A stretch of 64,000 nucleotides of DNA, taken from the NCBI GenBank assembly GCA_023150845.1, contig JAKLKD010000013.1:3896-67895 (forward strand), written 5' to 3'. This document shows positions 27,589 through 50,576 of the stretch, piece after piece; position 1 is the first letter of the stretch, and the number at the start of each line of letters is the position of its first letter. This DNA comes from Myxococcota bacterium. Lineage in GTDB: Bacteria > Myxococcota_A > UBA796 > CAJQPC01. A model generated the notes under the pieces. That model did no database searches. It was not told the origin of the DNA and saw only the letters and a program-made list of their open reading frames with translations. Both the position numbers and the translations under genes were made by a program.

Positions 27589-29028
27589 TTACTCGACCTC
27601 CAGCTCCAGGAGGTTGAGGTAAGCGAAGTCGCCCTGGGCGCGGTCTACGTCGAGGTGCAGGCGGCCATAGGCGTCGGGCAGAAGCCCGGTGAACACCACG
27701 AGCGTGCCGTCGTTGCCGTCATAGCCGTCGGCGCCGATGTCGGGGCCGGTGGTGGTGACCTCGGCGGACACGGGGGCCTCGCCGCCCTCGACGGTGAAGC
27801 GGGTGATGCGGGTCTGCTCGTCGGTGGCGCGGCTGGCGAAGAGGCGCAGGGTGTGGCGGGCGTCGGGGGAGAGGCCGCTGAGCATGATCCCGCCGGGGTC
27901 GTCGGGGTCGCCGGTGTAGAAGAAGTCGGCGGTGGCCTCCCAGACGGCCAAGGTGCCGAGCTTGTCGCCGGAGGGGCTCGTGAGGCCGCCGTTGCGCAGG
28001 CCGTTGGCGCGGAAGCCGCCGGAGAGCACGAGGTCCACCTCCGTGGCCGCCCCGGTGGTGGTGACGAGGCCGCGCAGGGCCTCCCCGGCGAGGGCCTGCG
28101 CGCCGCCTTGCAGGCTGTGCCAGGTGTTCCAGCGGATGCCGAAGCCGTCTAGGGCGGGGGCCTGGGCGCCGTCCTCGGGGTTGGAGGGGCCGAGGTCCAC
28201 CCGCAGGTAGCTGCCTGAAGGCGGGCCTACGGGGGCGGCGAGGGTGAAGTCGGGCATGTTGGCGCGAACGGTCGCGATCACCGCGGCGTCCCAGAGCGCG
28301 TAGCCCGCGGCGTTGAGGTGCAGGCCGTCCACGAAGTAGGCCTCGTCGGGCGGGCTGCCCGTGGCCAAGAGCGCGCTCACCGTGTCGATGTAGACGATGG
28401 AGGGGTGCTGGGCGGCGAGGCTCTGGACGGCCTGGTTCACGGCGTCTTGATCGGCCCAGATCGACCAGCGCGACGGCGTCGGCGTGATGCCCGCGAAGAA
28501 GAGCTTGGTGCCGGGCTGGGCGTCGTGGAGCTGCTGGGCGACGCAGCGCACGTTGTCCACCACGGACTGCACGCTGCGGCCGTCGGCGATGTCGTTCGTC
28601 CCGGCGAACATGAGCACCGCTGAAGGCGCGTGGCGCAAGGCCAAGGCGGGGAGGTGTTTGGCGATGTCCGCCGAGCGCGCCCCGCCCACGCCGCGCTGTA
28701 AGGGCGCGTAGCCCCCCAAGGTCCGCTGGGCCGTGCGCCAGCGGCGGATCGTCGAGGAGCCCACGAGCACCAGCCCACCCTTGGGCGGCGGCGCGGCGTC
28801 GTCCTGGGCGGTCCACACGGCGATCTGGGCGGCGAAGGGGTCGTCGCCGACGTCCACGAGCGCGCAGGGGTCATCCGTCCAGGGCAGGTCGGGCACGCCG
28901 CTGTCGGCGCTGTCGTCGGGGCGGGACTCTCTGGGGGCGCTGTCCTCGGCGCGGCTCTCCGCGGGGGTGTCTTCGCCGGGGGCTTTGTCGCCTCCAGCGC
29001 AGGACAGGAGCGTGAGGGTGAGGATCAT
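27589..29028 (-). CDS. SGNH/GDSL-family hydrolase lipoprotein with a C-terminal beta-sandwich-like domain
   Basis: The lipobox is LTLLSC. The SGNH blocks are LVGSST, GTND and DGLHLN. The ATG at 29028 overlaps the upstream stop (ATGA). The 700-aa ORF in the track has an Arg/Pro-rich, wrong-frame-looking N-terminal extension. Confidence 0.7.
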   Translation of the reverse strand: MILTLTLLSCAGGDKAPGEDTPAESRAEDSAPRESRPDDSADSGVPDLPWTDDPCALVDVGDDPFAAQIAVWTAQDDAAPPPKGGLVLVGSSTIRRWRTAQRTLGGYAPLQRGVGGARSADIAKHLPALALRHAPSAVLMFAGTNDIADGRSVQSVVDNVRCVAQQLHDAQPGTKLFFAGITPTPSRWSIWADQDAVNQAVQSLAAQHPSIVYIDTVSALLATGSPPDEAYFVDGLHLNAAGYALWDAAVIATVRANMPDFTLAAPVGPPSGSYLRVDLGPSNPEDGAQAPALDGFGIRWNTWHSLQGGAQALAGEALRGLVTTTGAATEVDLVLSGGFRANGLRNGGLTSPSGDKLGTLAVWEATADFFYTGDPDDPGGIMLSGLSPDARHTLRLFASRATDEQTRITRFTVEGGEAPVSAEVTTTGPDIGADGYDGNDGTLVVFTGLLPDAYGRLHLDVDRAQGDFAYLNLLELEVE

Positions 29029-31151
29029 CGGGCCTCCGGTGGCGTCGCATAACGCGCCGCCGCGCGGTCGAGGGTGTCCGAGAGCGCGGCCTGGGCCCCT
29101 CGGATGAGCGCGACGGCGCCGATCACGAGGGCGAAGGCCAGGGGGTCCGGGGAGATGGTGAAGCGCCGCAGGGCCCCGCCGAGGGCCAAGAACAAGGCGA
29201 CGTAGGGCAAGAGGCCGAGCCAGGAGCCCAAGAGCATCCCCGAGAGCGGCGCCCCGGCCGCGCCGCCGACGACGCCGACTAGGGCGAAGGGGGCCACGGG
29301 CAAGATGCGTAAGGAGAAGAACGCGACCCGCCCGCGGCGCAGGATGGCGTGCACGATGGGGTTCACGGCGCTGCCGACGAGGCGCTGCACCCGGCGGCGG
29401 CCCAAGGCGTAACCCGCCGCCCAGGTCCAGATCATCGCCAGGGTGAGGCTCACCGCGGCCAAGGCGCCGCCGCCGCGCGCGCCGAGCTCGACGGCGCAGA
29501 GGGTGACCACGAGGGCCACGGGCACACCGACGCTCAGGGCGAGGCCCGCGGCCAAGGCGAGGGTGAGCCAGCCGTCCCAGGTGACGGCGACGGCCTCGAC
29601 GGTGGCCCCGGCGAGGCGGAGGGTGTCGTCGGGGCGCACGACCCCGGCGCGCCACAGCCCGAAGGCGACGCTCAGGGCGAGCACCGACCACAGGCCTTGG
29701 GGGAGCCGGGCGGTGAGGCGCTCCCGGGCGCCACGCCCCAGGACGGCCTCGATCAAGGCGGGGAGCTGGAAGGGCTCCGGCGGGTCGTAGAGCAGCTCGG
29801 CCTCTTCAGCGAAGCTGCCCCGCAGCACGTCGGGGGCGACGCCGAAGGGGACGAGGGTGCGGTCCCCGCCGACGAGGGCGTCGACGGCGCGCAGCATCGA
29901 GCCCAGGCGGCCCTCGGCCTCCTCAAGCTGGGCCTCAGGCACGTTGAGGTGCTCGGCGATGAGCCGCCGCCGCAGGGCCGTGGCCAAGGTGCGGTCCTCA
30001 GGCCGGGTGAGCTCCAGGCAGAGATCGGCCTCGGTGTCGGCGCTCAGGCTGCGGGCGGCGAGGTTCGCCGATCCCACACGGACAAAGCGGTCATCGACGA
30101 TCATCACCTTGCTGTGTACGTAGAGCGCGACGCCCCGGGCGCGGGAGACGACAGGCCACATCAGGCGCAGGCGGCCGTGGCGGTCGGCGCGGCGGAGGCC
30201 GTCAAACAGGCGCCAGCGGGCGAGGCCGACGGTGACCCCGGCGAGAGGGCCCCGGGGGTGCTCCGGGCCGACGATGAGCAGCTCCGGCCCGGTGCCCTCC
30301 TTGAGGCGGCGCTCTAGCTCCTTCGCGAGCCCCCGGGCGGTGAGGTACTGGTTCTCGATGTACAGACGGCGCTCGGCGGCGTGGATGAGGTCCACAAAGA
30401 GCGCCTGGGCCTGGCGCCGGGGCGGGTCGGACCTGGGGTCGGTCAAGGTGACGCCGACGCGCACGTCGGCCCACTCCACGCCGTCGCCGTCCGGCCAGAG
30501 CGGCGCCCGTGGGCTGGGCGGGGTCACGGCCTCCCCCGTCGCGCGCCACCAGCGCTCCCGGGCGAGCTGGCCCAAGGCGGCGGCGGCCTCGCCGTCCACC
30601 ATCATCATGACGTCGTGAAAGGGAGGCATCGGCCCGCCCCGGGCGTTGACCCGGCGGCTGTCGACGACGCGGTGCGCGGGGGTGTCGAAGCGCCCGGCGG
30701 CGAGGTCGATGCCGCCGCAGAAGGCCAAGGTGTCGTCGATGATGACGAGCTTCTGGTGGTGGCTGCCGCCGAGGGGGGTGTGGCCGTCGTAGACCACCCG
30801 CAGGCGCCCGGCGAGGCGGGGATCGTCCAAGGCCAGCGCGCCGCCTTGGCCCCAGGCCATCGTGCGGGCCTTGTCCCAGGCCAAGACGCAGATGCGCAGG
30901 CGCGGCTGCAGCTCCAGCACCCGGGCGAAGAGGTCCACGACCCGCACCGGCCCGGCGGCGTCAAAGGTGATCGGCGCGTCGGGGTCGAGGGCCCAAGCCG
31001 TGACGAGGAGCTGCTCCTCGGCGGCGGCGGCGGCCCGGGCCAAGGTCTGAAAGTAGGCCTCCCCGTCGATGATCACCCGCGCCCGCACGCCCTCGGCGAC
31101 CCGCTCGACGTTTATGCCAGGGCGAAAGAGGCTCATCGCGCCAAGGTTCAC
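29025..31151 (-). CDS. phospholipase D-family protein (two HKD motifs) fused to a C-terminal VTT/DedA-like membrane domain
   Basis: The HKD motifs are HHQKLVIIDD...GGIDL and VHSKVMIVDD...GSANL. The last ~230 aa are polytopic and hydrophobic (...RILPVAPFALVGVVGGAAG...). The start is GTG at 31151 or ATG at 31136. Confidence 0.75.
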   Translation of the reverse strand: MNLGAMSLFRPGINVERVAEGVRARVIIDGEAYFQTLARAAAAAEEQLLVTAWALDPDAPITFDAAGPVRVVDLFARVLELQPRLRICVLAWDKARTMAWGQGGALALDDPRLAGRLRVVYDGHTPLGGSHHQKLVIIDDTLAFCGGIDLAAGRFDTPAHRVVDSRRVNARGGPMPPFHDVMMMVDGEAAAALGQLARERWWRATGEAVTPPSPRAPLWPDGDGVEWADVRVGVTLTDPRSDPPRRQAQALFVDLIHAAERRLYIENQYLTARGLAKELERRLKEGTGPELLIVGPEHPRGPLAGVTVGLARWRLFDGLRRADRHGRLRLMWPVVSRARGVALYVHSKVMIVDDRFVRVGSANLAARSLSADTEADLCLELTRPEDRTLATALRRRLIAEHLNVPEAQLEEAEGRLGSMLRAVDALVGGDRTLVPFGVAPDVLRGSFAEEAELLYDPPEPFQLPALIEAVLGRGARERLTARLPQGLWSVLALSVAFGLWRAGVVRPDDTLRLAGATVEAVAVTWDGWLTLALAAGLALSVGVPVALVVTLCAVELGARGGGALAAVSLTLAMIWTWAAGYALGRRRVQRLVGSAVNPIVHAILRRGRVAFFSLRILPVAPFALVGVVGGAAGAPLSGMLLGSWLGLLPYVALFLALGGALRRFTISPDPLAFALVIGAVALIRGAQAALSDTLDRAAARYATPPEAR

Positions 31152-35659: not shown

Positions 35660-36766
35660 ATGACCTCCGCCCCGCTGCTGCGCCTGGCGACAGGCACCGC
35701 GAACCTCGTGCGCCACAGCTTCGTGCGCGCCGAGGGCGGGACGGTTCACCTCACCACCCAAGAGGCGCGGCTCCTGGCGTACCTCGGCGCGCGGCCCGGC
35801 GAAGACATCGACCGCGACCGCCTGCTCGTCGAGGTCTGGGGGCACCACCGCGCCAGCCTCTCTCGGGCCGTCGACGCCACGGTGCGGCGGCTGCGGCGCA
35901 AGATCGAGCTCGACCCCGCCGCGCCGCGCATCCTGCTCACGGTTCACGGCGCGGGGTATCGCCTCGTGCCGGACGCCCAGGTGGACGAGGCCGCCCTCGC
36001 CGAGGCCGCGGCCCCCGCCCGGCCCCGGCTGACCCTTGGATCACGCACGGTGGACCTCGCCACGGGCGCGCTCGACGACGGCGCCCAGCTCACGGCGAAG
36101 GAGCGTCTGGTGTTGGAGCGGCTCTTGCGGGCCGAGGGGGGCTGGGTGAGCGCCGAGCGCCTCGGCGTGGCCGTGGGCCTCCGCCAGCGCCCGGGCGCGC
36201 TGCACAACCTCATCTACCGGCTGCGCCTGAAGCTTGAGCCCGACCCCGCGCGCCCCCAGCTCTTGGAGTCCAAGCGCGCGCTGGGCTATCGCCTCACCGC
36301 CCGGCCGCCGCCGAGCCCGCCCGGCGCCCACGTCGAGGCCTTGGGCTCTGTGGCGCGTCACCTCGGCCTCGCCGGGGGCGTGAGCGACTGTGTGGTGTAC
36401 CTGCGCGACGGCGACTCCCTCATGCAGGTGGCGGCGTTTGGCCCCAAGCTCGGCCCCGACGGCGCCGTGCGCGCGCCGCTGCGCCAGCGGATGGGCGAGG
36501 GCCTCGTCGGCGTCGCCGCGGCCACGGGCCGCCCGGTGCGGGTGGCCGACGTTCAAGAAGACCCCCGTTACCTTCCAGACCTCACCCCCGCCCGCTCCGA
36601 GCTCGCCGTGCCCATCTGCGCGTTCGGGCGGGTGGTCGGGGTCATCGACAGCGAGGACCCCACGCCGGGCCACCACGGCCCGCGCCACGAGGCCGTCTTC
36701 GTCTCCTTGGCCGCTATCGCGGCCGCCGCGTTCCCCGCGCCAACCGCGTCCCGAGGAAGCCCATGA
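35660..36766 (+). CDS. transcriptional regulator: two tandem OmpR/PhoB-type winged-helix domains plus a C-terminal GAF domain, with no receiver domain
   Basis: wHTH 1 reads LTTQEARLLAYL...RAVDATVRRLRRKIE...TVHGAGYRL. wHTH 2 reads LTAKERLVLERLL...LHNLIYRLRLKLE...SKRALGYRL. The GAF-like part reads GEGLVGVAAATGRPVRVADVQEDPRY...ELAVPI...GRVVGVIDSE. Confidence 0.65.
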   Translation: MTSAPLLRLATGTANLVRHSFVRAEGGTVHLTTQEARLLAYLGARPGEDIDRDRLLVEVWGHHRASLSRAVDATVRRLRRKIELDPAAPRILLTVHGAGYRLVPDAQVDEAALAEAAAPARPRLTLGSRTVDLATGALDDGAQLTAKERLVLERLLRAEGGWVSAERLGVAVGLRQRPGALHNLIYRLRLKLEPDPARPQLLESKRALGYRLTARPPPSPPGAHVEALGSVARHLGLAGGVSDCVVYLRDGDSLMQVAAFGPKLGPDGAVRAPLRQRMGEGLVGVAAATGRPVRVADVQEDPRYLPDLTPARSELAVPICAFGRVVGVIDSEDPTPGHHGPRHEAVFVSLAAIAAAAFPAPTASRGSP

Positions 36767-40504: not shown

Positions 40505-42157
40505 ATGACAACCGAACTTGACGCCTTTGGCCCTGGTCTTCCCCTAGAACCCGAGCGACCGCTGCCGCCGCTGCTCACCCGCGTCGGCCTCGTGCCGGGG
40601 GACCTGCGCGGCCGTCGGGCGCTGATCACCGGGGGCGCCCGCGGGATCGGCGCGGCGACGGCGGAGGCCCTGGCGGCCTTGGGCGCGCAGCTCGTCGTCT
40701 TCGATCGCCTGCCGGTGGACGAGCTCGCCGGGAGGGTCACCGAGGCGGGCGGGCACCTCCGCGGGGTCAACGTGGATCTCGCCGATCCCGAGGCGACCCT
40801 CGCCGCGACGACGCGTGTGCTCGCCGAGGAGGGTGAGTTTGACCTCTTCGTGCACAGCCCGGCCTTCGTGGGGCTCGGCCCGGTCACGCACCTCGCCTTG
40901 GCGGACTGGCGGCGCTCGTTCACGACGAACCTCGACTCGGCCTTCGTGATCACCCAGGCGCTGCTGCCGCGGATGTTGGCCGCGGGCCGCGGGGCGATCA
41001 CCTACCTGCTCTCGGCGGAGGGCACGCCGCTCAACTCGGGCTATGGCGCGAGCAAGGCGGCGTTACGGTCCCTGCTCCAGTCCTTGAGCGCGGAGCTGGG
41101 GCCCCAGTCGCCGGTCCACATCTTCGGCTTCGCGCCGGGCGTCGTCGACACGCCCCTCGTGCGGGAGCTGGTGCCGCGGCTCGCGGCGATGGTCGGCGCC
41201 CCGGTCGAGGCCATCCTCACGCAGATCGCGCAGAACCCGGGCTACCCGGGCCTCGTGCCCGTAGAGCATGTGGGCGCCGCCCTCGCCGCGCACCTCGTGC
41301 ACGCCCATGAGCTGCACGGTCAGGTCGCGGACTCCTTCTCCGTGCTCCGCCGGTTTGGGGTCGCGCCCTTGCCCGCGGCCCCCCTCGCCCCGGCGCCGCC
41401 CAGCGTGGTGATGCCCGAGGCCGAGAGCGACCGGGTGGTGGCGCAGATGATGAGTGAGCTGCGCACGGTCACCGACACCAACCAGAACCTTGAGCTGCGC
41501 ATCGAGCGCCGCACCCAAGAGCTCGCCCAGGAGCGGGCCCGCAGCGAGGCGCTCCTCCACGCGCTCTTGCCCCAGCCCATCGTGCCGCGGCTGCGGGAAG
41601 GGGAGGTCATCGCGGATCTGCTCCCCGAGGCCAGCGTGCTCTTCGCGGACATGCGCGGCTTCACGCCCCTGGCCGCGCGGCTCTCGCCGAGGGTCCTGCT
41701 CACGACGCTCACCCAGCTCTTTGGCGCCTTCGACGCCTTGGCCGACGAGCACCACGTCGAGAAGATCAAGACCATCGGCGACTGCTACATGGCGGCCACG
41801 GGCCTCTTCGCGGGTCGGGAGCGGCCGGTGGATGACCTCCTGCGCTTCGCTTTGGCCATTCAGCGGGCGCTCGCGGCGGTGCCGTACCCCGAGGAGGGCG
41901 GGCGTTGGGCCCTGCGTGTGGGCGTACACACCGGCCCCGCCGTCGCCGGGGTCATCGGCAACCGCCGCACGCTCTACGACCTCTGGGGCGACACGGTGAA
42001 CATCGCCAGCCGCATGGAGTCCCACGGCCTGCCCGATCGGGTGCAGGTGACCGACGCGGTGAAGGCCGCGGCCTCCCCCAGCTTTCAGTGGGAGGAGCGC
42101 CCCGGCGTCGTGGTCAAGGGCCTCGGCGAGATGCGGACCTGGTTATTGGTTGGTTGA
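40505..42157 (+). CDS. fusion protein: N-terminal SDR domain plus C-terminal class III adenylate/guanylate cyclase
   Basis: The SDR part reads RRALITGGARGIGAATAEAL...YGASKAAL. The cyclase part reads VLFADMRGFTPLAARL...VEKIKTIGDCYMAATGL...LRVGVHTGPAVAGVIG.RR..YDLWGDTVN.ASRMES. Confidence 0.8.
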   Translation: MTTELDAFGPGLPLEPERPLPPLLTRVGLVPGDLRGRRALITGGARGIGAATAEALAALGAQLVVFDRLPVDELAGRVTEAGGHLRGVNVDLADPEATLAATTRVLAEEGEFDLFVHSPAFVGLGPVTHLALADWRRSFTTNLDSAFVITQALLPRMLAAGRGAITYLLSAEGTPLNSGYGASKAALRSLLQSLSAELGPQSPVHIFGFAPGVVDTPLVRELVPRLAAMVGAPVEAILTQIAQNPGYPGLVPVEHVGAALAAHLVHAHELHGQVADSFSVLRRFGVAPLPAAPLAPAPPSVVMPEAESDRVVAQMMSELRTVTDTNQNLELRIERRTQELAQERARSEALLHALLPQPIVPRLREGEVIADLLPEASVLFADMRGFTPLAARLSPRVLLTTLTQLFGAFDALADEHHVEKIKTIGDCYMAATGLFAGRERPVDDLLRFALAIQRALAAVPYPEEGGRWALRVGVHTGPAVAGVIGNRRTLYDLWGDTVNIASRMESHGLPDRVQVTDAVKAAASPSFQWEERPGVVVKGLGEMRTWLLVG

Positions 42158-42166
42158 CCAACTAAC

Positions 42167-43141
42167 TCACCTCCTTGCCGCCCACATCGCCCCCGGGCGG
42201 CCCCGCGCCGCCGGGTTGAGGAGCAGCTCGGCGATGGCGCCGGAGGCGTCGAGGCCGATCTCGTCGAGCCAGAAGCACTCGCCGACGGGGTTCAGCTCCA
42301 AGAACACCCACTCGCCGTCCTCGGTGACGATGAAGTCGTAGGCGGCGTACTGCAGGCCGTAGGCGTCCGCCATCTTCACGCAGCTCTGCACGATGGCCTC
42401 GGGGGGCTCCAGCACCTTCCAGTCTTGGTCAAAGGTGCGGCGGAAGTCGGGCTTGTCCTTGGTGATCACCGCGTCGAGCGCTACGGGGATCACCCGGTCG
42501 CCGATGAGGGTCACCCGGGCCTCCCAGCGCCGCCCGATCACCTCGCCCTGGAAGATCATCGGGCAGGTGTCCAAGGTGTCGATGGCCTCGATGTCGTCTT
42601 GGGAGAGCCGGTTGGCGAACACCGCGCCGTCCGGGGCCGAGGCCGGGGTGAAGGGCTTGGCGATGACGGCGCCGGGCTGGGACTGGATGAAGGCCCGGGC
42701 CTCCTCGGGGTCGTTGCCGAGCCAGGTGGGCCGCAGGGTGAAGCCGAAGCCGGGGGCGTCGCGGAGCTGCCGGGGCTTGTTCGCCGCGACCCGGGCCACG
42801 AAGTTGTCATCGACGTGAGGCACATGCAGGGCGGCGAGCCAGTCCATCACCGCGCGCTCACACTCGGCGAGCATGAACCGGCGGGTGAGCTCGGGGAGGT
42901 CCTCGGGGATGGCCCGGGGGAGGTCGGGGCGGCGACCCCAGACCGCGCTGAGCTCGTCCTCACGCCACAGCCGCCCGTCGATGCGGATCGTCGCCCCCGC
43001 CGCGCCGAGGCCGAGCTGGAAGGCCTCGGGGTAACGGTCGAGGTTCAGGGTGAGGGGCGTGCCGCCGCGGGCGGTGATGGCGCGGGCGACCCAAGCGGTC
43101 CAGGGGTCCGTCGTGTTGCTGATGAGGAGGGCTGCGGGCAT
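42167..43141 (-). CDS. microviridin-type ATP-grasp ligase (graspetide maturase), precursor-adjacent copy
   Basis: The 324-aa product has the blocks LNLDRYP, SAVWGRR, NKPRQL, CPMIFQGEV, ARVTLIGDRV, GLQYAAYDFIVTEDGEWVFLELNPVGE.FW. I chose the start at Met 43141. It is transcribed divergently from the precursor genes. Confidence 0.8.
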   Translation of the reverse strand: MPAALLISNTTDPWTAWVARAITARGGTPLTLNLDRYPEAFQLGLGAAGATIRIDGRLWREDELSAVWGRRPDLPRAIPEDLPELTRRFMLAECERAVMDWLAALHVPHVDDNFVARVAANKPRQLRDAPGFGFTLRPTWLGNDPEEARAFIQSQPGAVIAKPFTPASAPDGAVFANRLSQDDIEAIDTLDTCPMIFQGEVIGRRWEARVTLIGDRVIPVALDAVITKDKPDFRRTFDQDWKVLEPPEAIVQSCVKMADAYGLQYAAYDFIVTEDGEWVFLELNPVGECFWLDEIGLDASGAIAELLLNPAARGRPGAMWAARR

Positions 43142-43305
43142 CGGCGGCTCCACGGTGGGGGCTCCCCTTATCTCGCGCGGATCCCCGCCGCCGCGCTCGG
43201 CGGTCAGGCGCGGGGCGCTGTGAAGGGTTGGCGCAGGGCGGCCCTTAACAGCCGTCGCCGACGAGGCACGCTCTGGGTGGCCTCCCAAAAACCCAGGAGC
43301 GAACT

Positions 43306-43506
43306 ATGAAACCTCCCACCCGTGTCCCCTTCTTCGCGCGCTTCGTTCAGCAGGCGCCGCCCACACTCTCCACCGAGGTCCGCGCGGGCTGGGGCCTCCC
43401 CGGCCAGAGGTTCGAGACGATGAAGCACCCCTCGGACAGCGACGAGGGTGGTCTCGTCGAGCGTGTGCGTGTGACGCTGAAGCCGACGGGCGACCGCGAC
43501 GAGTGA
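43306..43506 (+). CDS. microviridin-like graspetide precursor peptide, divergent copy (66 aa)
   Basis: The sequence is MKPPTRVPFFARFVQQAPP...ETMKHPSDSDEGG...TLKPTGDRDE. It has the PFFARF leader motif and a TxK.PSDxDE core. An AGGAG RBS is present. Confidence 0.7.
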   Translation: MKPPTRVPFFARFVQQAPPTLSTEVRAGWGLPGQRFETMKHPSDSDEGGLVERVRVTLKPTGDRDE

Positions 43507-43616
43507 CCGGCGCCCGTGAAGGGTTGGCGTAGGGTTCGGGCGAAGAGGCCCCTGGCTAAGCTGACGGGCGAGTCGAGCGCATGAAGCGCCCGATGAACCT
43601 CAGAGAGGCCACCACC

Positions 43617-43811
43617 ATGAGCAAGTCCACCCGCGTCCCGTTCTTCGCCCGCTTCATCGAGACCGAGGCCCCCAAGCTCGACACCGACGTCCGCGCTGGC
43701 GCCGACGGCGGCGGCACGACCTGGCCTCCCCAGACCATGAAGTACCCCTCCGACGCGGATGACACTTACAGCACCTTCAAGGGCGGCACGGATTACGACG
43801 AGAAGTGGTGA
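43617..43811 (+). CDS. microviridin-like graspetide precursor peptide (64 aa)
   Basis: The sequence is MSKSTRVPFFARFIETEAPKLDTDVRAGADGGGTTWPPQTMKYPSDADDTYSTFKGGTDYDEKW. A GAGAGG RBS is present. The start is chosen by homology with copies 3 and 4. Confidence 0.85.
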   Translation: MSKSTRVPFFARFIETEAPKLDTDVRAGADGGGTTWPPQTMKYPSDADDTYSTFKGGTDYDEKW

Positions 43812-43847
43812 TCCCGAGCCGCCTCGTCAGGCGGTGAAGGAGCCCAG

Positions 43848-43876
43848 GCGCCCCCGGTGAGACCCACCGGGGGCGC
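43848..43876 (+). terminator. terminator-like hairpin after precursor copy 2
   Basis: The hairpin is GCGCCCCCGGTG-AGACC-CACCGGGGGCGC, a perfect 12-bp stem, followed by TCGTCTCT. Confidence 0.55.
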
Positions 43877-44008
43877 TCGTCTCTGGGCCCCCGCGGGCTG
43901 CTCCGTGAAGGGTCCGTGAAGGGTCACAGCGCGGGACCGGGCGGCTATCCTGCTCATGTTGAGCGACGCTGACCCGCTTCGTCAGACCCACTCCGAGAGG
44001 CCACCACC

Positions 44009-44203
44009 ATGAGCAAGTCCACCCGCGTCCCGTTCTTCGCCCGTTTCATCGAGACCGAGGCCCCCAAGCTCGACACCGCCGTGCGCGCTGGCGCCGACGG
44101 CGGCGGCACGACCTGGCCCCCCCAGACCATGAAGTACCCCTCCGACGGAGAGGACACCTACGGCACCTTCAAGGGCGGCACCGAGTACGACGAGAAGTGG
44201 TAA
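44009..44203 (+). CDS. microviridin-like graspetide precursor peptide (64 aa)
   Basis: The sequence is MSKSTRVPFFARFIETEAPKLDTAVRAGADGGGTTWPPQTMKYPSDGEDTYGTFKGGTEYDEKW. Confidence 0.85.
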   Translation: MSKSTRVPFFARFIETEAPKLDTAVRAGADGGGTTWPPQTMKYPSDGEDTYGTFKGGTEYDEKW

Positions 44204-44239
44204 GCCCCAGCCGCCTCGTCAGGCGGTGAAGGAGCCCAG

Positions 44240-44268
44240 GCGCCCCCGGTGAGACCCACCGGGGGCGC
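44240..44268 (+). terminator. terminator-like hairpin after precursor copy 3
   Basis: It is the identical 12-bp-stem hairpin seen at 43848. Confidence 0.55.
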
Positions 44269-44401
44269 TCGTCTCTGGGCCCCCCGCGGGCGGCTCCGTG
44301 AAGGGTCCGTGCAGGGTCACAGCGCGGGATCGGGCGGCTACCTTGATGAGCGTTGAGCGGCGTTATCAGCTCAGCATGACTCACAAAACGAGGTCACCAC
44401 C

Positions 44402-44596
44402 ATGAGCAAGTCCACCCGCGTCCCGTTCTTCGCCCGCTTCATCGAGACCGAGGCCCCCAAGCTCGACACCGCCGTGCGCGCTGGCGCCGACGGCGGCGGC
44501 ACGACCTGGCCTCCCCAGACCCTGAAGTACCCCTCGGATGGGGATGACACCTACGGCACCTTCAAGGGCGGCACGGAGTACGACGAGAAGTGGTGA
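44402..44596 (+). CDS. microviridin-like graspetide precursor peptide (64 aa)
   Basis: The sequence is MSKSTRVPFFARFIETEAPKLDTAVRAGADGGGTTWPPQTLKYPSDGDDTYGTFKGGTEYDEKW. Confidence 0.85.
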   Translation: MSKSTRVPFFARFIETEAPKLDTAVRAGADGGGTTWPPQTLKYPSDGDDTYGTFKGGTEYDEKW

Positions 44597-44632
44597 TCCC
44601 GAGCCGCCTCGTCAGGCGGTGAAGGAGCCCAG

Positions 44633-44661
44633 GCGCCCCCGGTGAGACCCACCGGGGGCGC
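44633..44661 (+). terminator. terminator-like hairpin after precursor copy 4
   Basis: It is the identical 12-bp-stem hairpin, followed by TCGTCGTTT. Confidence 0.55.
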
Positions 44662-44668
44662 TCGTCGT

Positions 44669-44965
44669 TTAGGCCGCCGCCTGGCGCTCGGCGACGCCGC
44701 GGTGGATGAGGTAGGCGAGCAGGGCGATGGAGCCCACGAGCCCCGCGCTGATGACGTAGGGCCAGGGGTTGATGCCGCGCTGCCGAGCCTCGGGGACGAT
44801 GTAGGTGAGGCTGATGGTCGCCGAGATCACGAGGTCGAGGAAGACCTGGAGCCCCCAGCCGCTCTGGATCGACTCGACCAGCGCCCAGAGGCCGTGATCG
44901 ACGGTGATGAACACCGAGAAGATCGTGAAGGGGATGAACACCACGAGCGGGACGATGAGTCGCAT
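44669..44965 (-). CDS. small 3-TM membrane protein (DUF2834-like; family uncertain)
   Basis: An AGGAGG RBS precedes the ATG at 44965. The 98-aa product is hydrophobic (MRLIVPLVVFIPFTIFSVFITVDHGLWAL...). Confidence 0.6.
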   Translation of the reverse strand: MRLIVPLVVFIPFTIFSVFITVDHGLWALVESIQSGWGLQVFLDLVISATISLTYIVPEARQRGINPWPYVISAGLVGSIALLAYLIHRGVAERQAAA

Positions 44966-45065: not shown

Positions 45066-45863
45066 ATGACCAGCTTCCCTACGCTCCTTCGCCGCTGGCG
45101 CAGCGCCCGCGCCGCGACCCAGGCCCGGCTCGCCGCCGACGCCGAGATCTCCACCCGGCACCTGAGCTTCTTAGAGGCGGGCAAGGCCCGGCCCAGCCGC
45201 CAGATGGTGCTCTTGCTCTCCAGCGCCTTGGACCTGGAGCTGCGCGACCGCAACGCCATGCTGCTCAGCGCGGGCTTCGCGCCGATCTACAGCGAGACGC
45301 CCCTGGACGACCAGGCGATGAGCCCCGTGCGCCGGGCGATGGCCCTCGTGCTGCAGCAGCAGGAGCCCTACGGGGCGATCGCGGTGAACCGGCGCTGGGA
45401 GGTGATTCAGCTCAACCAGGGCGCGGCGCGGCTGTTCACGGCGTTTATGCCCGACCCCATCCCCGATCCCATCATCGCCCAGAACCTCGTCCACGCGATG
45501 TTCCACCCCGCGGGCCTGCGCCCGGTGATCGTCAACTGGGAGGAGCTGTGCTGGAGCTTCATCGCCCGGCTGCACCGGGAGACGGAGCTGGCCCCGGAGG
45601 GGCGAGGCCACGCCGCGCTCCTCGCCGAGCTCTCGCGGTACCCCGACGTGCCGAGCCGGGCGAGCCTCCGGGAGCTCGCGCCCCAGCCCTTCTTGACCGT
45701 TCACCTGCGGCGCCCGCCTTACGACCTGCGGCTGTTCACCGTGCTCACGGCGTTCGGCACGCCCCTGGACGTGACCGCCCAGGAGCTCACCATCGAGACC
45801 TTCTTCCCCGCGGACGAAGAGAGCGACGCCCAGCTCCGACAGATGGCGGAGGCGCTACACTGA
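45066..45863 (+). CDS. XRE-family HTH regulator with an MmyB-like ligand-binding domain
   Basis: The HTH reads LLRRWRSARAATQARLAADAEISTRHLSFLEAGKARPSRQMVLLLSSAL. It is followed by an MmyB-like C-terminal part (...PYGAIAVNRRWEVIQLNQGAARLF...). Confidence 0.7.
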   Translation: MTSFPTLLRRWRSARAATQARLAADAEISTRHLSFLEAGKARPSRQMVLLLSSALDLELRDRNAMLLSAGFAPIYSETPLDDQAMSPVRRAMALVLQQQEPYGAIAVNRRWEVIQLNQGAARLFTAFMPDPIPDPIIAQNLVHAMFHPAGLRPVIVNWEELCWSFIARLHRETELAPEGRGHAALLAELSRYPDVPSRASLRELAPQPFLTVHLRRPPYDLRLFTVLTAFGTPLDVTAQELTIETFFPADEESDAQLRQMAEALH

Positions 45864-45872
45864 GCGGCGGAG

Positions 45873-46421
45873 GTGCCTCTGTCCGCTCCGATGACCCTCA
45901 AGGACCGCGTGTTTGGCTGGCTCTCCGGGAGCTGGCGCCCGCCTTGGGCCCTGCCTGCGGCCGCCGTCGCCGCGCTCGGGCTCAGCGTCGCGCTCAACGG
46001 GATCGTCGTCGGGGTCTACGGCGTCGAGCCCGTCCCCGACCTGCTCCACCCCGCCACGCCGGAGACCCTCGTCGCCGCCCTGGACGCCTTGGGGCCGACG
46101 CTGCGCGCGGCGTACGTCAAGACGGCCTTCCTCGACGTGTTTTACCCCCTCGCGTATGGGGTCGCCATCTCCGGGGCCTTGGCCCGGCTGGCGCCCCCGG
46201 CCCTGCGCTGGCTGCCCTACCTGCTGCCGCTGACCGTCGCCGCGGACCTCACGGAGAACCTCTTTTTTGTCGGCCTCGCCGCTGAGGTCTGGCCCCGGGA
46301 CCCCGTCGTGCTGACCCTGGCCTGCGCGGCGAACGCGGTGAAGTGGCTCACCGCGGACGTCGCGATCCTGAGCATGGTCCTCCTCGGGCTCTGGCGCGCG
46401 GCGCGCTGGGCCCGGGGCTAA
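45873..46421 (+). CDS. hypothetical membrane protein
   Basis: The 182-aa product has 4-5 hydrophobic segments. I recognised no family. Confidence 0.45.
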   Translation: MPLSAPMTLKDRVFGWLSGSWRPPWALPAAAVAALGLSVALNGIVVGVYGVEPVPDLLHPATPETLVAALDALGPTLRAAYVKTAFLDVFYPLAYGVAISGALARLAPPALRWLPYLLPLTVAADLTENLFFVGLAAEVWPRDPVVLTLACAANAVKWLTADVAILSMVLLGLWRAARWARG

Positions 46422-48430
46422 CGCACCCAGAGCTCGATGGCGCCGACGCCGACGTCCTCGCTGTAGGTGAGCGAGGAGGCCTCCTCGTCGGCCATGAGGC
46501 GCACCTCGATGGCGTCGTCCGTCGAGGCGCTCAGGGTGCGCTGGAAGCTGTCCCCGGAGAAGGCCGGGGTGCTGTACCACTGGTAGCCCCAGGTCGTCGT
46601 GCTGGTGTTCCCGGTGTCGCAGGAGTAGCTCGCGCCGACGAAGCTCGGGGCGGCGTTCCCGCCGCGGTCGGGGCAGTCATAGGCGTAGCGGCCGTTGAGG
46701 GTCATGCCGACGGCGTAGGTCCAGATGTGGGTGCGGGCGCCGCTGACGCCGTGGGTGATGGAGATGCCGTCGACGTAGAGGTCCTCGACGGTGCGGCCGC
46801 TTGCGTACCAGAAGGCGTTCATGCTCGCGTACTGGTAGGCCGTGAGCGCGCCGCGCACCTCGCCGTAGGTGACGCCGAGGCTGTCAAACTCGGCGGCCGG
46901 GGCGCTCCCCCGGGCGGTGTAGCGGCGGCAGATCGCCAGGGTGCTGTCCTTCACCCAGGCGCCGGGGCAGGTGTCAACGCTGTAGTCCTCATCGGCGAGC
47001 TGGGTCCAGCCGCCGCCGTCCGTGGTCATGTCACACACCACGTCAAAGGGCGAGACGCCGACCCCGGCGCCGTCGGGGTCGATGGTGTAGACGCCGTCGC
47101 CCGTCGAGCGCCCGGCGTTGAGCACGGAGAGGCAGTCCACGCCCAGGGCGCAGGCGCCGTCGGACTCCGGGGTGACCGCGCCGTCGTCGTCGTCGCAGTC
47201 GTCGCCGCCGCAGGCCTCGTCGGAGTAGCCGTCGAGGTCGTCGTCGTTGTCGATGGCGCCGTCGCAGTCGTGGTCGAGGCCGTCACAGCCCAGGGCCGCG
47301 CCGGGGTAGACGTCGTCGGCGCCGTCCTCACAGTCCCCGCCCGCGGCGACGTAGAGGCTCGTGGGGGCCGCGCAGGCCATGAGCGCCGTGGCGTCTTGGC
47401 CGTAGCCGTCGCCGTCGAGGTCGGCGTACCAGGCGGTCTGCACGTCCTCGTCGATCTCGCCGTCACAGTCGTTGTCCACCTCGTCACAGACCTCGGCGGC
47501 GCCGGGGTAGGCGGAGTCGTCGCCGTCGTCGCAGTCTTCAGTGGTGGCGACGAAGCCGTCCGGGGCCACGCAGGCCTGCACCGCGAGGCGGGTGACGCCG
47601 ACACCGTCGCCGTCGCCATCGCCGTACCAGGTCTGGGCGTCGGCGGCGCTGGAGGGGTCCACCTCGCCGTCACAGTCGTTGTCGAGCTCATCGCAGAGCT
47701 CCAGCGCGTCGGGGTTCACCGCGCTGCGGCTGTCGTCGCAGTCGCCGTCGTCTTGGGTGTAGCCCTCGGGCGCCGCGCAGGCGTCGGTGTAAAAGTCGGG
47801 GTCGCCGAAGCCGTCGCCGTCTACGTCCTGGTGATAACGCTCGGCGTCTAAGGCGTCGGCGTCGACGCGCCCGTCGCAGTCGTTGTCGATCTCATCACAG
47901 ACCTCGGCGGCCAAGGGGTTCACCGCCCGCGCGCCGTCATCGCACTCCAGGCAGGCGGGGAAGCCGTCGGCGTCGTTGTCCTCAAAGCCTACGCTGCCGT
48001 CGCAGTTGTAGTCGTTGGGATCCGCGCAGTCGGTCTCCGTGGCGCCGGGGAAGAACGCGGCGTCCTCGTCGTCACAGTCGCCGTCTTGGGTGACCATGCT
48101 GTCGGGCAGCTCACAGGCCAAGGTGGGCGCCCCGGCGCCGTAGCCGTCCCCGTCGCCGTCGGTGTAGGCGGCGGTGGCGTCTACCGCGTCCTGATCCACC
48201 TCGCCGTCACAGTCGTTGTCGAGGCCGTCGCAGCGCTCCTCCACGCCGGGGTTCACCGCGGCGTCGTTGTCGTCGCAGTCCTCGTCGTCGGCGAAGCCGT
48301 CACCGTCCTCGTCGCTGAGCCCAGGCAAGAGGCCGGTCTCGGTGGCGGCGTCTTTGGTGTCGTCGCAGGCGTAGGCGAAGAGGGCGACGAGGGGGGCGAG
48401 CAGGCGAGCGGGGCGCAGCACGAGGGCCAT
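46418..48430 (-). CDS. lipoprotein with Cys-rich 'putative metal-binding motif' repeats and a C-terminal fibrinogen-like YCDxxxxGGGW domain
   Basis: The lipobox is LFAYAC. The repeats read CDD.DA.V.PGA.E.CD..DNDCDG.VD. The C-terminal part reads GVYTIDPDGAGVGVSPFDVVCDMTTDGGGWTQL. Confidence 0.75.
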   Translation of the reverse strand: MALVLRPARLLAPLVALFAYACDDTKDAATETGLLPGLSDEDGDGFADDEDCDDNDAAVNPGVEERCDGLDNDCDGEVDQDAVDATAAYTDGDGDGYGAGAPTLACELPDSMVTQDGDCDDEDAAFFPGATETDCADPNDYNCDGSVGFEDNDADGFPACLECDDGARAVNPLAAEVCDEIDNDCDGRVDADALDAERYHQDVDGDGFGDPDFYTDACAAPEGYTQDDGDCDDSRSAVNPDALELCDELDNDCDGEVDPSSAADAQTWYGDGDGDGVGVTRLAVQACVAPDGFVATTEDCDDGDDSAYPGAAEVCDEVDNDCDGEIDEDVQTAWYADLDGDGYGQDATALMACAAPTSLYVAAGGDCEDGADDVYPGAALGCDGLDHDCDGAIDNDDDLDGYSDEACGGDDCDDDDGAVTPESDGACALGVDCLSVLNAGRSTGDGVYTIDPDGAGVGVSPFDVVCDMTTDGGGWTQLADEDYSVDTCPGAWVKDSTLAICRRYTARGSAPAAEFDSLGVTYGEVRGALTAYQYASMNAFWYASGRTVEDLYVDGISITHGVSGARTHIWTYAVGMTLNGRYAYDCPDRGGNAAPSFVGASYSCDTGNTSTTTWGYQWYSTPAFSGDSFQRTLSASTDDAIEVRLMADEEASSLTYSEDVGVGAIELWVR

Positions 48431-48497: not shown

Positions 48498-50576
48498 TCA
48501 ACGCAGGTAAGCCGGGTAGGACATCAGCGGGCTGCCGAACTTCTCCGGGGTCGCGTCGCCGCAGTCCCGGCACTGCACGTTCACCACGGGCACCTTGACG
48601 CTGTTGATCTCAAACAGCGTGGCCTTGGAGAGCGCGCCGCCCTCGCCGCCGTTCACCGCGCAGCCGTCGGAGGTCACCTTGATGTCGTAGGGGCTGTAGC
48701 TGGAGGTGCCGTAGGACGTCTCCGTGCCGTCGAAGAAGCGGAAGCCGAAGGAGTAGTCGTAGCCGCCGCCCGCGGTGTAGTAGTAGTGGATGACGTGCTC
48801 ACAGAGGCCGACGTAGGTCTGGTTGCCCTCGGAGGAGAGCGACTGAATCGCGGTGATCTGGGCGTCGGAGAGCTCCAGGGTGAAGTCCGAGCCCAAGAAG
48901 CGGTAACGGTCGCCCCCGGTGAACTGCTGCTGGAAGGTGAGGTCGGCGGAGTACTCCACGACCGTCCAGCCGCCGCCGTCGGTGGTCATGTCGCACTCGA
49001 CGTCAAAGGGGTCGAGGCCGACGCCGAAGCCGTCGGGGTCGATGGTGTAGATGCCGTCCCCGGCGCTGTAGCCGTTCGCGAGCACGTCGAGGCAGGTCGC
49101 CCCCAAGGCGCAGCCGCCGCCGAGCTCCGGCAAGACCACGGCGTCGGTGTCGTCGCAGTCGTCGCCGCCGCAGGTCGCGTCGGCGTACCCATCGCCGTCA
49201 GCGTCGTTGTCGACGGCGCCGTCACAGTCGTAGTCGCCGCCATCACAGCCCAAGCTGGCGCCGGGGAAAGCGTCGTCGTCGCCGTCGTCACAGTCGCCAT
49301 CGGCGGCGACGTAGTCGCTCGTGGGCGGGGTGCAGGCGTCGGTGGAGCGGCTGCCGCCGTACCCGTCGCCGTCTACGTCGAGGTACCAGGTGCTCTTGAC
49401 GCCCTCATCGACGCTGCCGTCGCAGTTGTTATCGACGCCGTCGCAGGTCTCTGAGGCGCCGGTCCAGGCGGCCTCCTCGGTGTCGTCACAGTCGCCGCTG
49501 TTGTCGACGTAGCCGTCCGGCGCGCTGCACGCGGTCGTCGAGCGTTTGGGGTTGCCGTAGCCGTCCTCGTCGCTGTCGAGGTAGTAGGTGCTCGTGAGGC
49601 CCTCATCGACGGCGCCGTCGCAGTTGTTGTCGACCTCATCACAGACCTCGGTGGCGCCGTCCCAGGCCAGAGCCTCCTTGTCGTTGCAGTCGCCGTCGTT
49701 CTCGACGGTGCCCGCGGGCTGCTCACAGCTCGCCTTGCCCGTGGCGGGGTCCCCGTAGCTGTCGCCGTCGCGGTCGGAGTAATAGGTCACGGCGTCGATG
49801 GGGTCGTCGTCCGCGGCGCCGTCACAGTCGTTGTCGACGCTGTCGCAGAGCTCATCGGCGCCGGGGTTGGTGGTCGCGGTCGCGTCGTCGCAGTCCCCGT
49901 CCTCGGCGGCGTAACCCTCCGGGGTGTCGCAGGACTCCTGGGCGAAGTCCGTGTCGCCGTAGCCGTCGGCGTCGGCGTCTTGGTACCAGGTCCCGGCGTC
50001 TACGGCGCCGACGTCGGCCTCGCCGTCACAGTTGTTGTCGACGTCATCGCAGATCTCCGTCGCCGAGGGGTTCACCGCCCGGCTGCCGTCGTCACACTCC
50101 TCACAGGCGGCGAAGCCGTCGCCGTCCGCGTCGGTGAGGCCGGAGGAGCCGTCACAGTTGTAGTCCGTGGGGTCGAGGCAGTCGTCCTCGGGGGCGTCGG
50201 GGTAGATCGTGGCGTCTTGGTCATCACAGTCGCCGAACGCGCTCGCGTAGCCCTCGGGGGCCTCGCAAGCGGTCTCGGTGTAGCTCTCGACGCCGTACCC
50301 GTCGCCGTCGGCGTCGGCGTAGAAGGTCGCCGCGTCGGTGGCGTCCTCGTCGGCGTCGCCGTCGCAGTCGTTGTCGAGGCCGTCGCAGGTCTCGGCGGCG
50401 CCGCTGTTCACCGCGGCGTTGGTGTCGTCACAGTCGTCCTCCCCGGTGAAGCCGTCGCCGTCCTCATCGACGGTCTGGGGCTCGGTATCGACGTTGGTGT
50501 CGATGACCACGTCCTTGTCGTCGGATCGACAGCCGAGGGCGAACAAGGTGAGGACGAAGAGAGCGGTCGTGCGCAT
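48498..50576 (-). CDS. paralogous lipoprotein with metal-binding-motif repeats and a fibrinogen-like YCDxxxxGGGW domain
   Basis: The lipobox is LFALGC. It has the same repeat type. The C-terminal part reads GIYTIDPDGFGVGLDPFDVECDMTTDGGGWTVV. Confidence 0.75.
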   Translation of the reverse strand: MRTTALFVLTLFALGCRSDDKDVVIDTNVDTEPQTVDEDGDGFTGEDDCDDTNAAVNSGAAETCDGLDNDCDGDADEDATDAATFYADADGDGYGVESYTETACEAPEGYASAFGDCDDQDATIYPDAPEDDCLDPTDYNCDGSSGLTDADGDGFAACEECDDGSRAVNPSATEICDDVDNNCDGEADVGAVDAGTWYQDADADGYGDTDFAQESCDTPEGYAAEDGDCDDATATTNPGADELCDSVDNDCDGAADDDPIDAVTYYSDRDGDSYGDPATGKASCEQPAGTVENDGDCNDKEALAWDGATEVCDEVDNNCDGAVDEGLTSTYYLDSDEDGYGNPKRSTTACSAPDGYVDNSGDCDDTEEAAWTGASETCDGVDNNCDGSVDEGVKSTWYLDVDGDGYGGSRSTDACTPPTSDYVAADGDCDDGDDDAFPGASLGCDGGDYDCDGAVDNDADGDGYADATCGGDDCDDTDAVVLPELGGGCALGATCLDVLANGYSAGDGIYTIDPDGFGVGLDPFDVECDMTTDGGGWTVVEYSADLTFQQQFTGGDRYRFLGSDFTLELSDAQITAIQSLSSEGNQTYVGLCEHVIHYYYTAGGGYDYSFGFRFFDGTETSYGTSSYSPYDIKVTSDGCAVNGGEGGALSKATLFEINSVKVPVVNVQCRDCGDATPEKFGSPLMSYPAYLR

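Follow-up and report, generated by a model that had tools for sequence, protein, structure and literature searches.

Peptides of the microviridin type are serine-protease inhibitors of high potency that can be tuned, and the ATP-grasp ligases that act on them serve as macrocyclisation tools. Microviridins are encoded in Microcystis and Planktothrix by the mdnA-E/mvdA-F clusters, with the ligases MdnC/MvdD and MdnB/MvdC, and marinostatin of marine Alteromonas and Algicola is bicyclic, with two esters and no lactam. Multi-core microviridin precursors reportedly form class II in the classification of Ahmed et al. 2017. Class II precursors have several cores in tandem behind a single leader (PMC7823629). 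The published signature combines a PFFxRFx leader with a TxKxPSDx(D/E)(D/E) core (PMC12848669); microviridin-type clusters are conserved in Archangium, Cystobacter and Sorangium (PMC12766979), and one was characterised from a metagenome-assembled genome (MAG) of Myxococcota (PMC12848669). Here we describe a locus in a 64,000-nt stretch of DNA from a Myxococcota bacterium (GCA_023150845.1, contig JAKLKD010000013.1, positions 3,896 to 67,895; hereafter the window), in which a gene for an ATP-grasp peptide macrocyclase (lig1) is transcribed divergently from four small precursor genes (pre1 to pre4) and a second ligase gene (lig2) lies some distance away (Table 1). We interpret it as a locus with which an uncultured Myxococcota lineage makes group-1 graspetides (microviridin/marinostatin family), an explanation to which, taken as a whole, we assign a probability of roughly 85%. 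The family assignment with lig1 as the maturase, which is supported by profile, structure and synteny evidence, is held with greater confidence still. A first-pass annotation, made from the sequence alone, had already proposed a microviridin-class graspetide locus in a GC-rich, apparently myxobacterial genome, and the same three lines of evidence support that proposal.

The locus shares with the microviridins the PFFARF leader helix, the TxKxPSDx(D/E)(D/E) core, a ligase with an MvdD pre-ATP-grasp domain and an MdnC-like fold and, as predicted here, serine-protease inhibition. Unlike in the cyanobacterial clusters, no GNAT, ABC transporter or lactam ligase of the MdnB/MvdC type was found in the window; identity of the ligases to MdnB and MdnC is just ~30-34%, and they score below equivalog cut-offs; two ligases are found 14.7 kb apart; and the four precursors, which are probably transcribed separately, have a non-canonical second core. 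Marinostatin resembles the locus in having Asp at acid positions and a small residue for Trp. Its core reads ...TMRYPSDSDE, with Arg after P1 (the x of TxK, as in the microviridin J-trypsin complex and marinostatin), and is nearly matched by the pre1 core TMKHPSDSDE; a string search of the literature for this marinostatin sequence returned no paper. The absence of an MdnB-type ligase from the window is a further likeness, and NCBIfam puts both systems under NF033738. In contrast to marinostatin, an invariant Lys follows P1 here, so that a lactam is possible, a second ligase occurs in the region, and the precursor has two cores.

The class II precursors AMdnA (Anabaena PCC 7120) and CdnA (chryseoviridin, Chryseobacterium) have tandem cores behind one leader, a layout to which that of the present precursors corresponds if their second motif is counted as a core. 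However, all of their cores are canonical (TxKYPSD...), whereas core 2 here is KGGTE or KPxGD and yet conserved, and the C39 peptidase normally encoded in class II clusters was not found nearby. The myxomiditides, made by the myx cluster of a deep-sea Myxococcota MAG (PMC12848669), agree with the locus in phylum, PFFxRFx leader, tricyclic-cage motif, follower peptide, the presence of several MvdD-branch ATP-grasp ligases, and the cage acids E7/D9/E10, which are those of core 2 here. They differ in having four ligases, whereas the window has two non-adjacent ones and no MyxF-type or MyxC-type enzyme was identified in it; in addition, the extra conserved motif here is C-terminal and cage-like, and not an N-terminal lactam pair. 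Membership in myxomiditide class 3 was rejected, as none of the four peptides has (KxxE)n between leader and core.

Precursor peptides

The four plus-strand open reading frames (ORFs) of 66, 64, 64 and 64 aa were found exactly where the first-pass annotation had placed them, and its description of an RVPFFARF(V/I) leader, a T(M/L)K(H/Y)PSDx(D/E)(D/E) core and an individual purine-rich ribosome-binding site (RBS) for each gene was confirmed. The leader motif occupies residues 6-14 of all four peptides (RVPFFARFV in pre1, RVPFFARFI in pre2-4), the core motif TxKxPSDx(D/E)(D/E) is present in 4/4, and each RBS is of the GGAG/GAGG type, 7-10 nt ahead of the ATG. In profile searches, which had been suggested as a check, pre2-4 exceeded the curated cut-offs of both precursor models, PF12559 (Inhibitor_I10; 21 bits) and NF033738 (microviridin/marinostatin family tricyclic proteinase inhibitor; 26 bits), and pre1 fell short of both by less than 0.5 bit. 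Scores for pre1, pre2, pre3 and pre4 were 20.6, 34.4, 34.2 and 30.1 bits with PF12559 (E values from 5e-4 to 3e-8) and 25.6, 34.2, 37.1 and 36.3 bits with NF033738 (2e-5 to 4e-9). Two features that had been listed as non-canonical, the replacement of Trp by A/G/S and the use of Asp for Glu, proved to be ordinary, because both fall within the published TxKxPSDx(D/E)(D/E) motif (PMC12848669). Pairwise identity among pre2-4 is 92-97%, and these genes are copies of a 392-393-bp tandem repeat unit; pre3 is 95% identical to P0008, which is encoded on an 872-kb metagenomic contig.

Three precursor types were defined from an alignment of 18 homologues and all paralogues in related loci. Type A (pre1-like, 66 aa) has the C-terminal part GGxVxRxxxT(L/I)KPxGDxD(E/D), type B (pre2-4-like, 64 aa) has T(Y/A)(G/S)T(F/L/Y)KGGTEYDE(K)W, and type C, which is absent from the window, consists of 57-61 aa with a single core and (V)KW.

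A probable second core in the C-terminal extension

The C-terminal extension of 14-20 aa had been regarded as a non-canonical tail. The extension is present; judging from the alignments, however, it represents a second core that has diverged, the counterpart by homology of core 2 in common two-core precursors. When placed in the cage register, the C-terminal segment, or follower, of type B matches 6/6 cross-linking positions and that of type A 5/6, and core 2 of pre2-4 is chemically compatible (Thr1/Lys3/Thr6/Glu7/Asp9/Glu10). The pattern [ST].K...[DE].[DE][DE] had 8 matches when the window was translated in all six frames (128,000 aa), namely the four cores and the four followers, and composition-preserving shuffles of the followers reproduced the five-position pattern at a frequency of 1e-4 to 5e-4. 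Aligned with two-core homologues, pre3 and pre1 have their follower motifs in exactly the columns of the second canonical core. When 1.84 billion representative proteins were searched with a profile, 167 relatives were obtained in total, and the best 150 of these contained one (39 sequences), two (59), three or more (44) or no (8) canonical cores. Two-core precursors of 55-70 aa with matching layout were the commonest type among these best 150, in which this lineage alone had a core 2 that is non-canonical after a canonical core 1. At the DNA level, a 31-nt repeat in pre1 relates core 1 (43415-43445) to the C-terminal motif (43472-43502) with 68% identity. The experimentally solved rings of the Myxococcota myxomiditides (Thr9-Glu15, Ser14-Asp17 and Lys11-Glu18; PMC12848669) have spacings and acids equal to those of core 2 positions 1/7, 6/9 and 3/10, and we counted this in favour of a second core. 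The idea that the follower is a thuringinin/plesiocin-like Thr...Glu hairpin was dropped, as the microviridin-cage register and the two-core alignment fit instead.

Core 2 is under purifying selection. Pooled pN/pS values, which are descriptive since the pairs are non-independent, were 0.23 for the leader, ~1.07 for the linker, 0.27 for core 1 and 0.46 for core 2, and T(L/I)KPxGDxD(E/D) was kept by pre1 orthologues in L009, L012, L013 and L015 (L numbers denote the related loci compared here). Nonsynonymous change within core 2 clusters at P1, which fits the expectation for an inhibitor loop. Over paralogues and relatives, P1 would be Met, Leu or Lys in core 1 and Phe, Leu or Tyr in core 2; Lys3 was invariant, never Arg, across every core of every paralogue.

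In several orthologous type-B precursors (L010, 4428-4625 and 5176-5370; L011; L013, 4361-4555 and 5107-5304) KYPSD is replaced by KYPCD. This substitution puts Cys where the ester-forming Ser would be, and a thioester ring or ring loss is conceivable.

ATP-grasp ligases

The 324-aa ATP-grasp gene divergent from the precursors was also exactly as first annotated, with its CPMIFQ, LIGDRV and FLELNPVGE blocks and a gap of 164 bp to pre1. The mechanical ORF reaches a TTG at 43288, and orthologues and the MdnC alignment favour the 324-aa form. The MvdD pre-ATP-grasp domain was recognised in lig1 by PF21068 (41.7 bits, cut-off 27, E = 1.5e-10), and TIGR04184 (MvdD, 175.6 bits) was its best NCBIfam model, ahead of SAV_5884 (156.4) and TIGR04185 (MvdC, 150.3). 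The suggested profile check of the ligase was borne out by domain and best model, but not at the level of the equivalog, for which the cut-offs are 475 bits (TIGR04184) and 425 bits (TIGR04185). Among solved structures the best sequence match was MdnC (5IG9, 2e-35), followed by MdnB, AMdnB and CdnC. The AlphaFold2 model of lig1 (predicted local distance difference test, pLDDT, 89.1; predicted template modelling score, pTM, 0.87) had MdnC bound to MdnA (5IG9 chains) as its top Foldseek match, with template modelling (TM) scores of 0.82-0.90.

Residues K122, K162, Q198, E207, R209, E282 and N284 of lig1 are invariant in a 22-ligase alignment, and E282-x-N284 is the E-x-N metal-binding motif of ATP-grasp enzymes. 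The Q/E positions that were mutated in Myx ligases appear conserved in the alignment. The acidic pair by which MdnC recognises the leader, E191/D192 (PMC12848669), corresponds to D-D in lig1 and E-D in lig2, and the aligned C-terminal motif of lig1 reads as MdnC-like ...GE(C/F)FWL..., not MdnB-like ...GEWGML.... In a bootstrapped neighbour-joining (NJ) tree, a distance tree of 93 ligases with few reference sequences whose placements are indicative, 79/100 replicates put lig1 on the lactone side, with MdnC/CdnC, and 0/100 grouped it with MdnB/AMdnB; the corresponding values for lig2 were 95/100 and 1/100. By these sequence comparisons both enzymes are homologues on the MdnC side and not equivalogs of cyanobacterial MvdD, and the lig1 clade is very divergent. 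Of 185,579 species genomes, just three, all uncultured MAGs (with the labels Myxococcota, 'Deltaproteobacteria' and 'Pseudomonadota'), contained relatives of lig1 at 91-94% identity; all other matches were at 34% or less, short partial ones aside, and identity to anything outside the clade was at most ~36%. Ligase homologues in Nocardiopsis, Pseudonocardiaceae and Myxococcaceae (L016-L058) were assigned to other graspetide groups, being no more than 34% identical (short partial matches aside) and without PFFxRF peptides.

The statement that only one ligase is present holds for the immediate neighbourhood of the precursors, but not for the region: lig2, found by tblastn with lig1 (34% identity), is a second MvdD-like ligase that is syntenically conserved and linked to the peptide type elsewhere. 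It is a more conventional MvdD-like protein than lig1 (TIGR04184, 268.5 bits; TIGR04185, 231.5 bits), with sequence matches to the solved structures of MdnB (5IG8, 1e-48) and MdnC (5IG9, 2.8e-47), and its orthologue MCK6514461.1 is named 'MvdD family ATP-grasp ribosomal peptide maturase' by NCBI. Apart from lig1, lig2 and the four peptides, tblastn of the window detected no ATP-grasp genes of the ligase family or precursors; by tblastn and NJ grouping, no MdnB/MvdC-type lactam ligase was found in it. There is no precursor-like small ORF beside lig2 among all ORFs of at least 30 aa between 23.6 and 29.8 kb. Two relatives have a lig2 orthologue on the contig that also carries lig1, at distances of 17.4 and 18.3 kb from it. 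The nearest non-orthologous lig2 homologue (58% identity, L063/L064) is convergent with a type-B peptide gene ending ...TLKYPSDGDDTYGTFKGGTEYDEKW. In a more distant lineage (L001-L005), genes for a lig2-like ligase (53-55% identity), a third ligase (lig3) and a lig1-like ligase (59-60%) are adjacent, and the placement of lig3 in the NJ tree is weak (23/100 with MdnB, 8/100 with MdnC).

A Peptidase_C39_2 protein is present only in L001, one of these distant three-ligase clusters. Several loci also contain 'leaderless' microviridin-type peptide genes (Table 1), such as a 41-aa MGRSLTASRAGAGGGRTGWLFDADEPQPTKKYPSDDDEPRY with a good RBS in L003 and a 40-aa MTAGAGGTPTPWPPQTLKYPSDGDDTYGTFKGGTEYDEKW in L064. 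These two peptides begin near the conserved RAG motif, have no PFFARF helix and adjoin lig2-like ligases; the genes may be relics, or may encode substrates of ligases that need no leader or are activated in trans.

Table 1. Coordinates of features in the window and, where a locus number is given, in related loci
Feature	Coordinates	Strand	Description
lig1	42167-43141	-	324-aa ATP-grasp peptide macrocyclase from ATG; MvdD/MdnC (lactone-forming) side, divergent clade
pre1	43306-43506	+	Type A, 66 aa, MKPPTRVPFFARFVQQAPPTLSTEVRAGWGLPGQRFETMKHPSDSDEGGLVERVRVTLKPTGDRDE; leader RVPFFARFV, core 1 TMKHPSDSDE, GG spacer, C-terminal core-2-like TLKPTGDRDE
pre2	43617-43811	+	Type B, 64 aa, MSKSTRVPFFARFIETEAPKLDT(D)VRAGADGGGTTWPPQT(M)KYPSD(ADD)TY(S)TFKGGT(D)YDEKW; core 1 TMKYPSDADD, spacer TYS, core 2 TFKGGTDYDE, tail KW
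pre3	44009-44203	+	Type B, 64 aa; like pre2 but A24; positions 1-10 of core 1 TMKYPSDGED, spacer TYG, positions 1-10 of core 2 TFKGGTEYDE, tail KW
pre4	44402-44596	+	Type B, 64 aa; like pre3 but core 1 TLKYPSDGDD; core 2 TFKGGTEYDE, tail KW
lig2	26501-27502	-	333-aa MvdD-like ATP-grasp maturase; candidate partner ligase for these peptides
Three-gene run	26501-31151	-	PLD-like/VTT protein (29025-31151), GDSL lipase (~27589-29000), lig2 last
Upstream element, copy 1	43220-43238	+	86 nt before pre1 ATG
Upstream element, copy 2	43516-43534	+	Before pre2
Upstream element, copy 3	43905-43923	+	Before pre3; exact tandem GTGAAGGGT x2
Upstream element, copy 4	44298-44316	+	Before pre4
Smaller hairpin	43818-43835	+	Precedes pre2 stem-loop
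Stem-loop after pre2	43847-43877	+	13-bp G+C; minimum free energy (MFE) -50 kcal/mol, z = -4.4 vs shuffles
Stem-loop after pre3	44239-44269	+	13-bp G+C; MFE -48.5 kcal/mol, z = -4.8
Stem-loop between pre4 and convergent 97-aa gene	44632-44662		13-bp G+C; MFE -50 kcal/mol, z = -4.6
SDR-adenylate/guanylate cyclase fusion	40505-42157	+	N-terminal short-chain dehydrogenase (SDR), C-terminal cyclase domain; directly downstream of lig1
97-aa predicted membrane protein	44669-44962	-	Convergent with pre4; conserved right-hand neighbour; system membership uncertain
MmyB-like transcription regulator	45066-45863	+	HTH_31 + MLTR_LBD; PF17765 7.6e-30, PF13560 1e-6
Three-ligase clusters	L001 8000-12973; L003 202-3274; L005 2-1932		Third ligase with MdnB-like ...GEWWML motif
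'Leaderless' microviridin-type peptide genes	L003 1259-1384; L004 1215-1340; L064 1463-1585; L063 1468-1590	-

Proposed biosynthesis and alternative explanations

In the pathway that we propose, the PFFARF(I/V) leader helix would be docked by lig1, which with ATP would activate Asp/Glu side-chain carboxylates as acyl phosphates. Omega-ester rings would then be closed in core 1, first from Thr1 to Asp7 and then from Ser6 to (Asp/Glu)9, with the possible addition of a Lys3 to (Asp/Glu)10 lactam. We consider formation of this lactam an even bet on the sequences. That Lys3 is invariant and never Arg argues that it is still made, and MyxD1, an MvdD-branch ligase that makes lactams, suggests that it could be made without an MdnB-type enzyme; clusters commonly lack MdnB, and are then likely to make bicyclic products of the marinostatin type (PMC7823629). 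As the cross-linking positions of core 2 in pre2-4 are chemically matched, this core could well be cyclised too, which would give a two-headed peptide; whether it is really cross-linked we place at equal odds. The lactone-type lig2, encoded 14.7 kb away without a substrate gene of its own, is a likely second maturase that would either take one of the two cores or supply the Lys3 to (Asp/Glu)10 lactam, and we slightly favour the view that it acts on these peptides. The predicted products are serine-protease inhibitors with P1 Met/Leu in core 1 and Phe/Leu in core 2, and the variety of P1 across cores and paralogues fits diversified protease specificity. Leader removal, any N-acetylation and export would be supplied from elsewhere in the genome. 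The most specific form of this proposal, a double-headed inhibitor with two independent cages per short peptide, the second built on TxKGGTEYDE without a Tyr-Pro-Ser-Asp turn, and with two lactone-clade ligases ~15 kb apart sharing the work (each acting on one core, or one of them forming the lactam with no MdnB-type enzyme), appears rather unlikely as a complete statement.

All of this chemistry is inferred by homology, and a number of observations weigh against it. Core 2 is without the Tyr-Pro-Ser-Asp turn (now KGGTE or KPxGD), pre1 core 2 lacks the conserved second hydroxyl residue, changes at the conserved cyclisation positions are poorly accepted by MvdD/MdnC (PMC7823629), and followers, which Myxococcota precursors have, proved dispensable for modification in the myx system (PMC12848669). 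Both ligases score far under the MvdD/MvdC equivalog cut-offs (175.6 and 268.5 against 475 bits for TIGR04184), the MdnC-side placement of lig1 at 79/100 is moderate, and clade is an unreliable guide to bond type, MyxD1 lying on the MvdD branch and yet forming lactams (PMC12848669). The lig2 gene seems to be co-transcribed with PLD-like and GDSL-lipase genes, and its conserved distance from lig1 could be mere colinearity of close genomes (83-98% nucleotide identity). Accessory functions are also missing: no GNAT, C39 peptidase or peptidase-ABC exporter occurs among the scanned window genes or in the synteny tables, and no leader peptidase or acetyltransferase in the window, which agrees with the first-pass annotation for the parts of the window so covered. 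The loss of P-S-D from core 2, the missing hydroxyl of pre1, the dispensable followers and the apparent PLD-GDSL operon of lig2 would equally suit a single-core system, a possible though less probable arrangement in which lig1 alone cyclises core 1 into a marinostatin-like bicyclic or microviridin-like tricyclic product, the C-terminal segment is a follower (for recognition, solubility or processing) or a relic, and lig2 is unrelated. One-ligase marinostatin-type clusters are described as common (PMC7823629), and type C paralogues of relatives have one core and a short (V)KW tail, both in line with such a system. Harder to reconcile with it are the cage positions with compatible chemistry, kept at 6/6 in type B and 5/6 in type A despite strong divergence elsewhere, the focusing of nonsynonymous core 2 change on P1, as for an inhibitor loop, and the lig2-clade ligase that adjoins a type-B peptide gene in another lineage.

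The division of labour between the ligases could also be other than proposed. If roles were reversed or split by bond type, lig2 would make the lactones and lig1 would be a lactam former or, in the way that MyxD1 partners MyxD2, a partner that is non-catalytic or activating. The invariant Lys3, never Arg, suggests a lactam, although an MdnB-type ligase is missing from the window; of the ligases in the myx pathway, one from the MvdD branch forms lactams and another depends on partner ligases (PMC12848669); and lig1-like, lig2-like and third ligases are clustered in L001-L005. We nevertheless find this option unlikely, because lig1 matches the lactone-forming MdnC best in both structure and sequence, was never grouped with MdnB in the bootstraps, and has the C-terminal motif ...GE(C/F)FWL... 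and not ...GEWGML.... Least probable by far is that the small ORFs are non-functional, as decaying duplicates or chance ORFs in GC-rich DNA beside an orphan ligase. Frameshifted copies in some relatives (L014, L015), leaderless fragments (L003, L064) and the lack of nearby accessory genes could be read in that way, but the MAG to which the frameshifted copies belong is a long-read one, and assembly errors are a plausible cause. Hidden Markov model (HMM) matches above curated cut-offs, an RBS before each gene, purifying selection specific to regions, arrays intact in at least eight related contigs, and a conserved upstream element and downstream hairpins flanking the genes all speak against it. 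We therefore retain the group-1 graspetide locus as the best explanation.

The class itself, multi-core precursors and Myxococcota microviridin clusters are already known. The new points are a second core that is conserved though non-canonical, a lig1 clade that has diverged very far and the lack of any nearby accessory gene, together with what is apparently a split pair of lactone-type ligases. The lineage is a natural experiment in substrate tolerance, in which the Y-P-S-D turn, supposed to be essential, was lost and six cross-linking positions were kept. If core 2 is cyclised, the rule that TxKxPSD is required relaxes and small bivalent inhibitors come within reach; if not, the locus is one further microviridin/marinostatin cluster of an uncultured myxobacterium. 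The double-headed arrangement, if true, would mean a broader substrate rule for microviridin ligases and a minimal two-ligase, two-core Myxococcota system. Partner ligases may be encoded apart and, as a consequence, overlooked by cluster-based genome miners.

Transcription signals

A 19-nt element, GTGAAGGGTNNGNGNAGGG, was matched 4 times in the window, where 0 matches were expected, each time 5' of a precursor gene and starting 86-104 nt ahead of its ATG. It is direct-repeat-like (GTGAAGGGT-NN-G(C/T)G(A/C/T)AGGG) and is the best conserved block of the upstream regions in the window, L006 and L012. We consider it a candidate promoter or activator site; candidate factors that might bind it are the MmyB-like neighbour and a GAF/Trans_reg_C protein (35660-36766). 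The stem-loops after pre2, pre3 and pre4 are terminator-like or mRNA-stabilising, and that of pre4 is possibly a bidirectional terminator. A T-run-based scan of intrinsic terminators detected no stem-loop because these hairpins have no T-runs, and a sigma-70 promoter scan gave a single, uninformative hit inside lig1. Given these elements and stem-loops, each precursor looks like a separate transcription unit, as we infer. Scans of the window for tRNA and Rfam families found nothing.

Genomic context

Orthologous precursor arrays were found in at least eight related metagenomic contigs or MAGs, the contigs being 83-98% identical to the window in nucleotide sequence. The link between lig1 and the precursors persists although the left flank is swapped, with the SDR-cyclase in some relatives and, in others (L006, L007, L009), a thiamine pyrophosphate (TPP) enzyme and a KASIII-like gene in its slot. 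On the right, a gene of 97-99 aa is present at the matching position in L006, L007, L009, L010 and L011; the 97-aa form has no Pfam match, and the longer ORF has a weak DUF2834 match (E = 0.04). The MmyB-like regulator is conserved in L006, L007, L009 and L010 and is a possible regulator of the locus.

One frameshifted precursor copy each occurs in L014 (1582-2142) and L015 (9239-9490), contigs of the MAG Rand_18-Q3-R56-63_MAXAC.001, in which lig2 is also split (P0111/P0113) on the same 81-kb contig and the whole locus is present in two copies. As this MAG is long-read, the frameshifts are probably assembly indels and not real pseudogenes.

The three-gene run that ends in lig2 has gaps of 87 bp or 4-bp overlaps and is kept in L059-L062; such a PLD-GDSL run is an odd operon context for a maturase of peptides made by the ribosome and modified post-translationally (RiPPs). 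To the right of the locus, two large paralogous secreted proteins (46418-48430 and 48498-50576, minus strand) carry CxxDxDCDD-type repeats, with Cu-binding_MopE (Pfam) in orthologues, and the second of them (48498-50576) has a faint-to-weak fibrinogen-C match. A 771-aa ORF (21339-23654, plus strand), which corresponds in position to a gene annotated KAP_NTPase in L061, is located where the window has its single dip in GC (22-24 kb, 0.57 vs ~0.70), which may be an acquired island.

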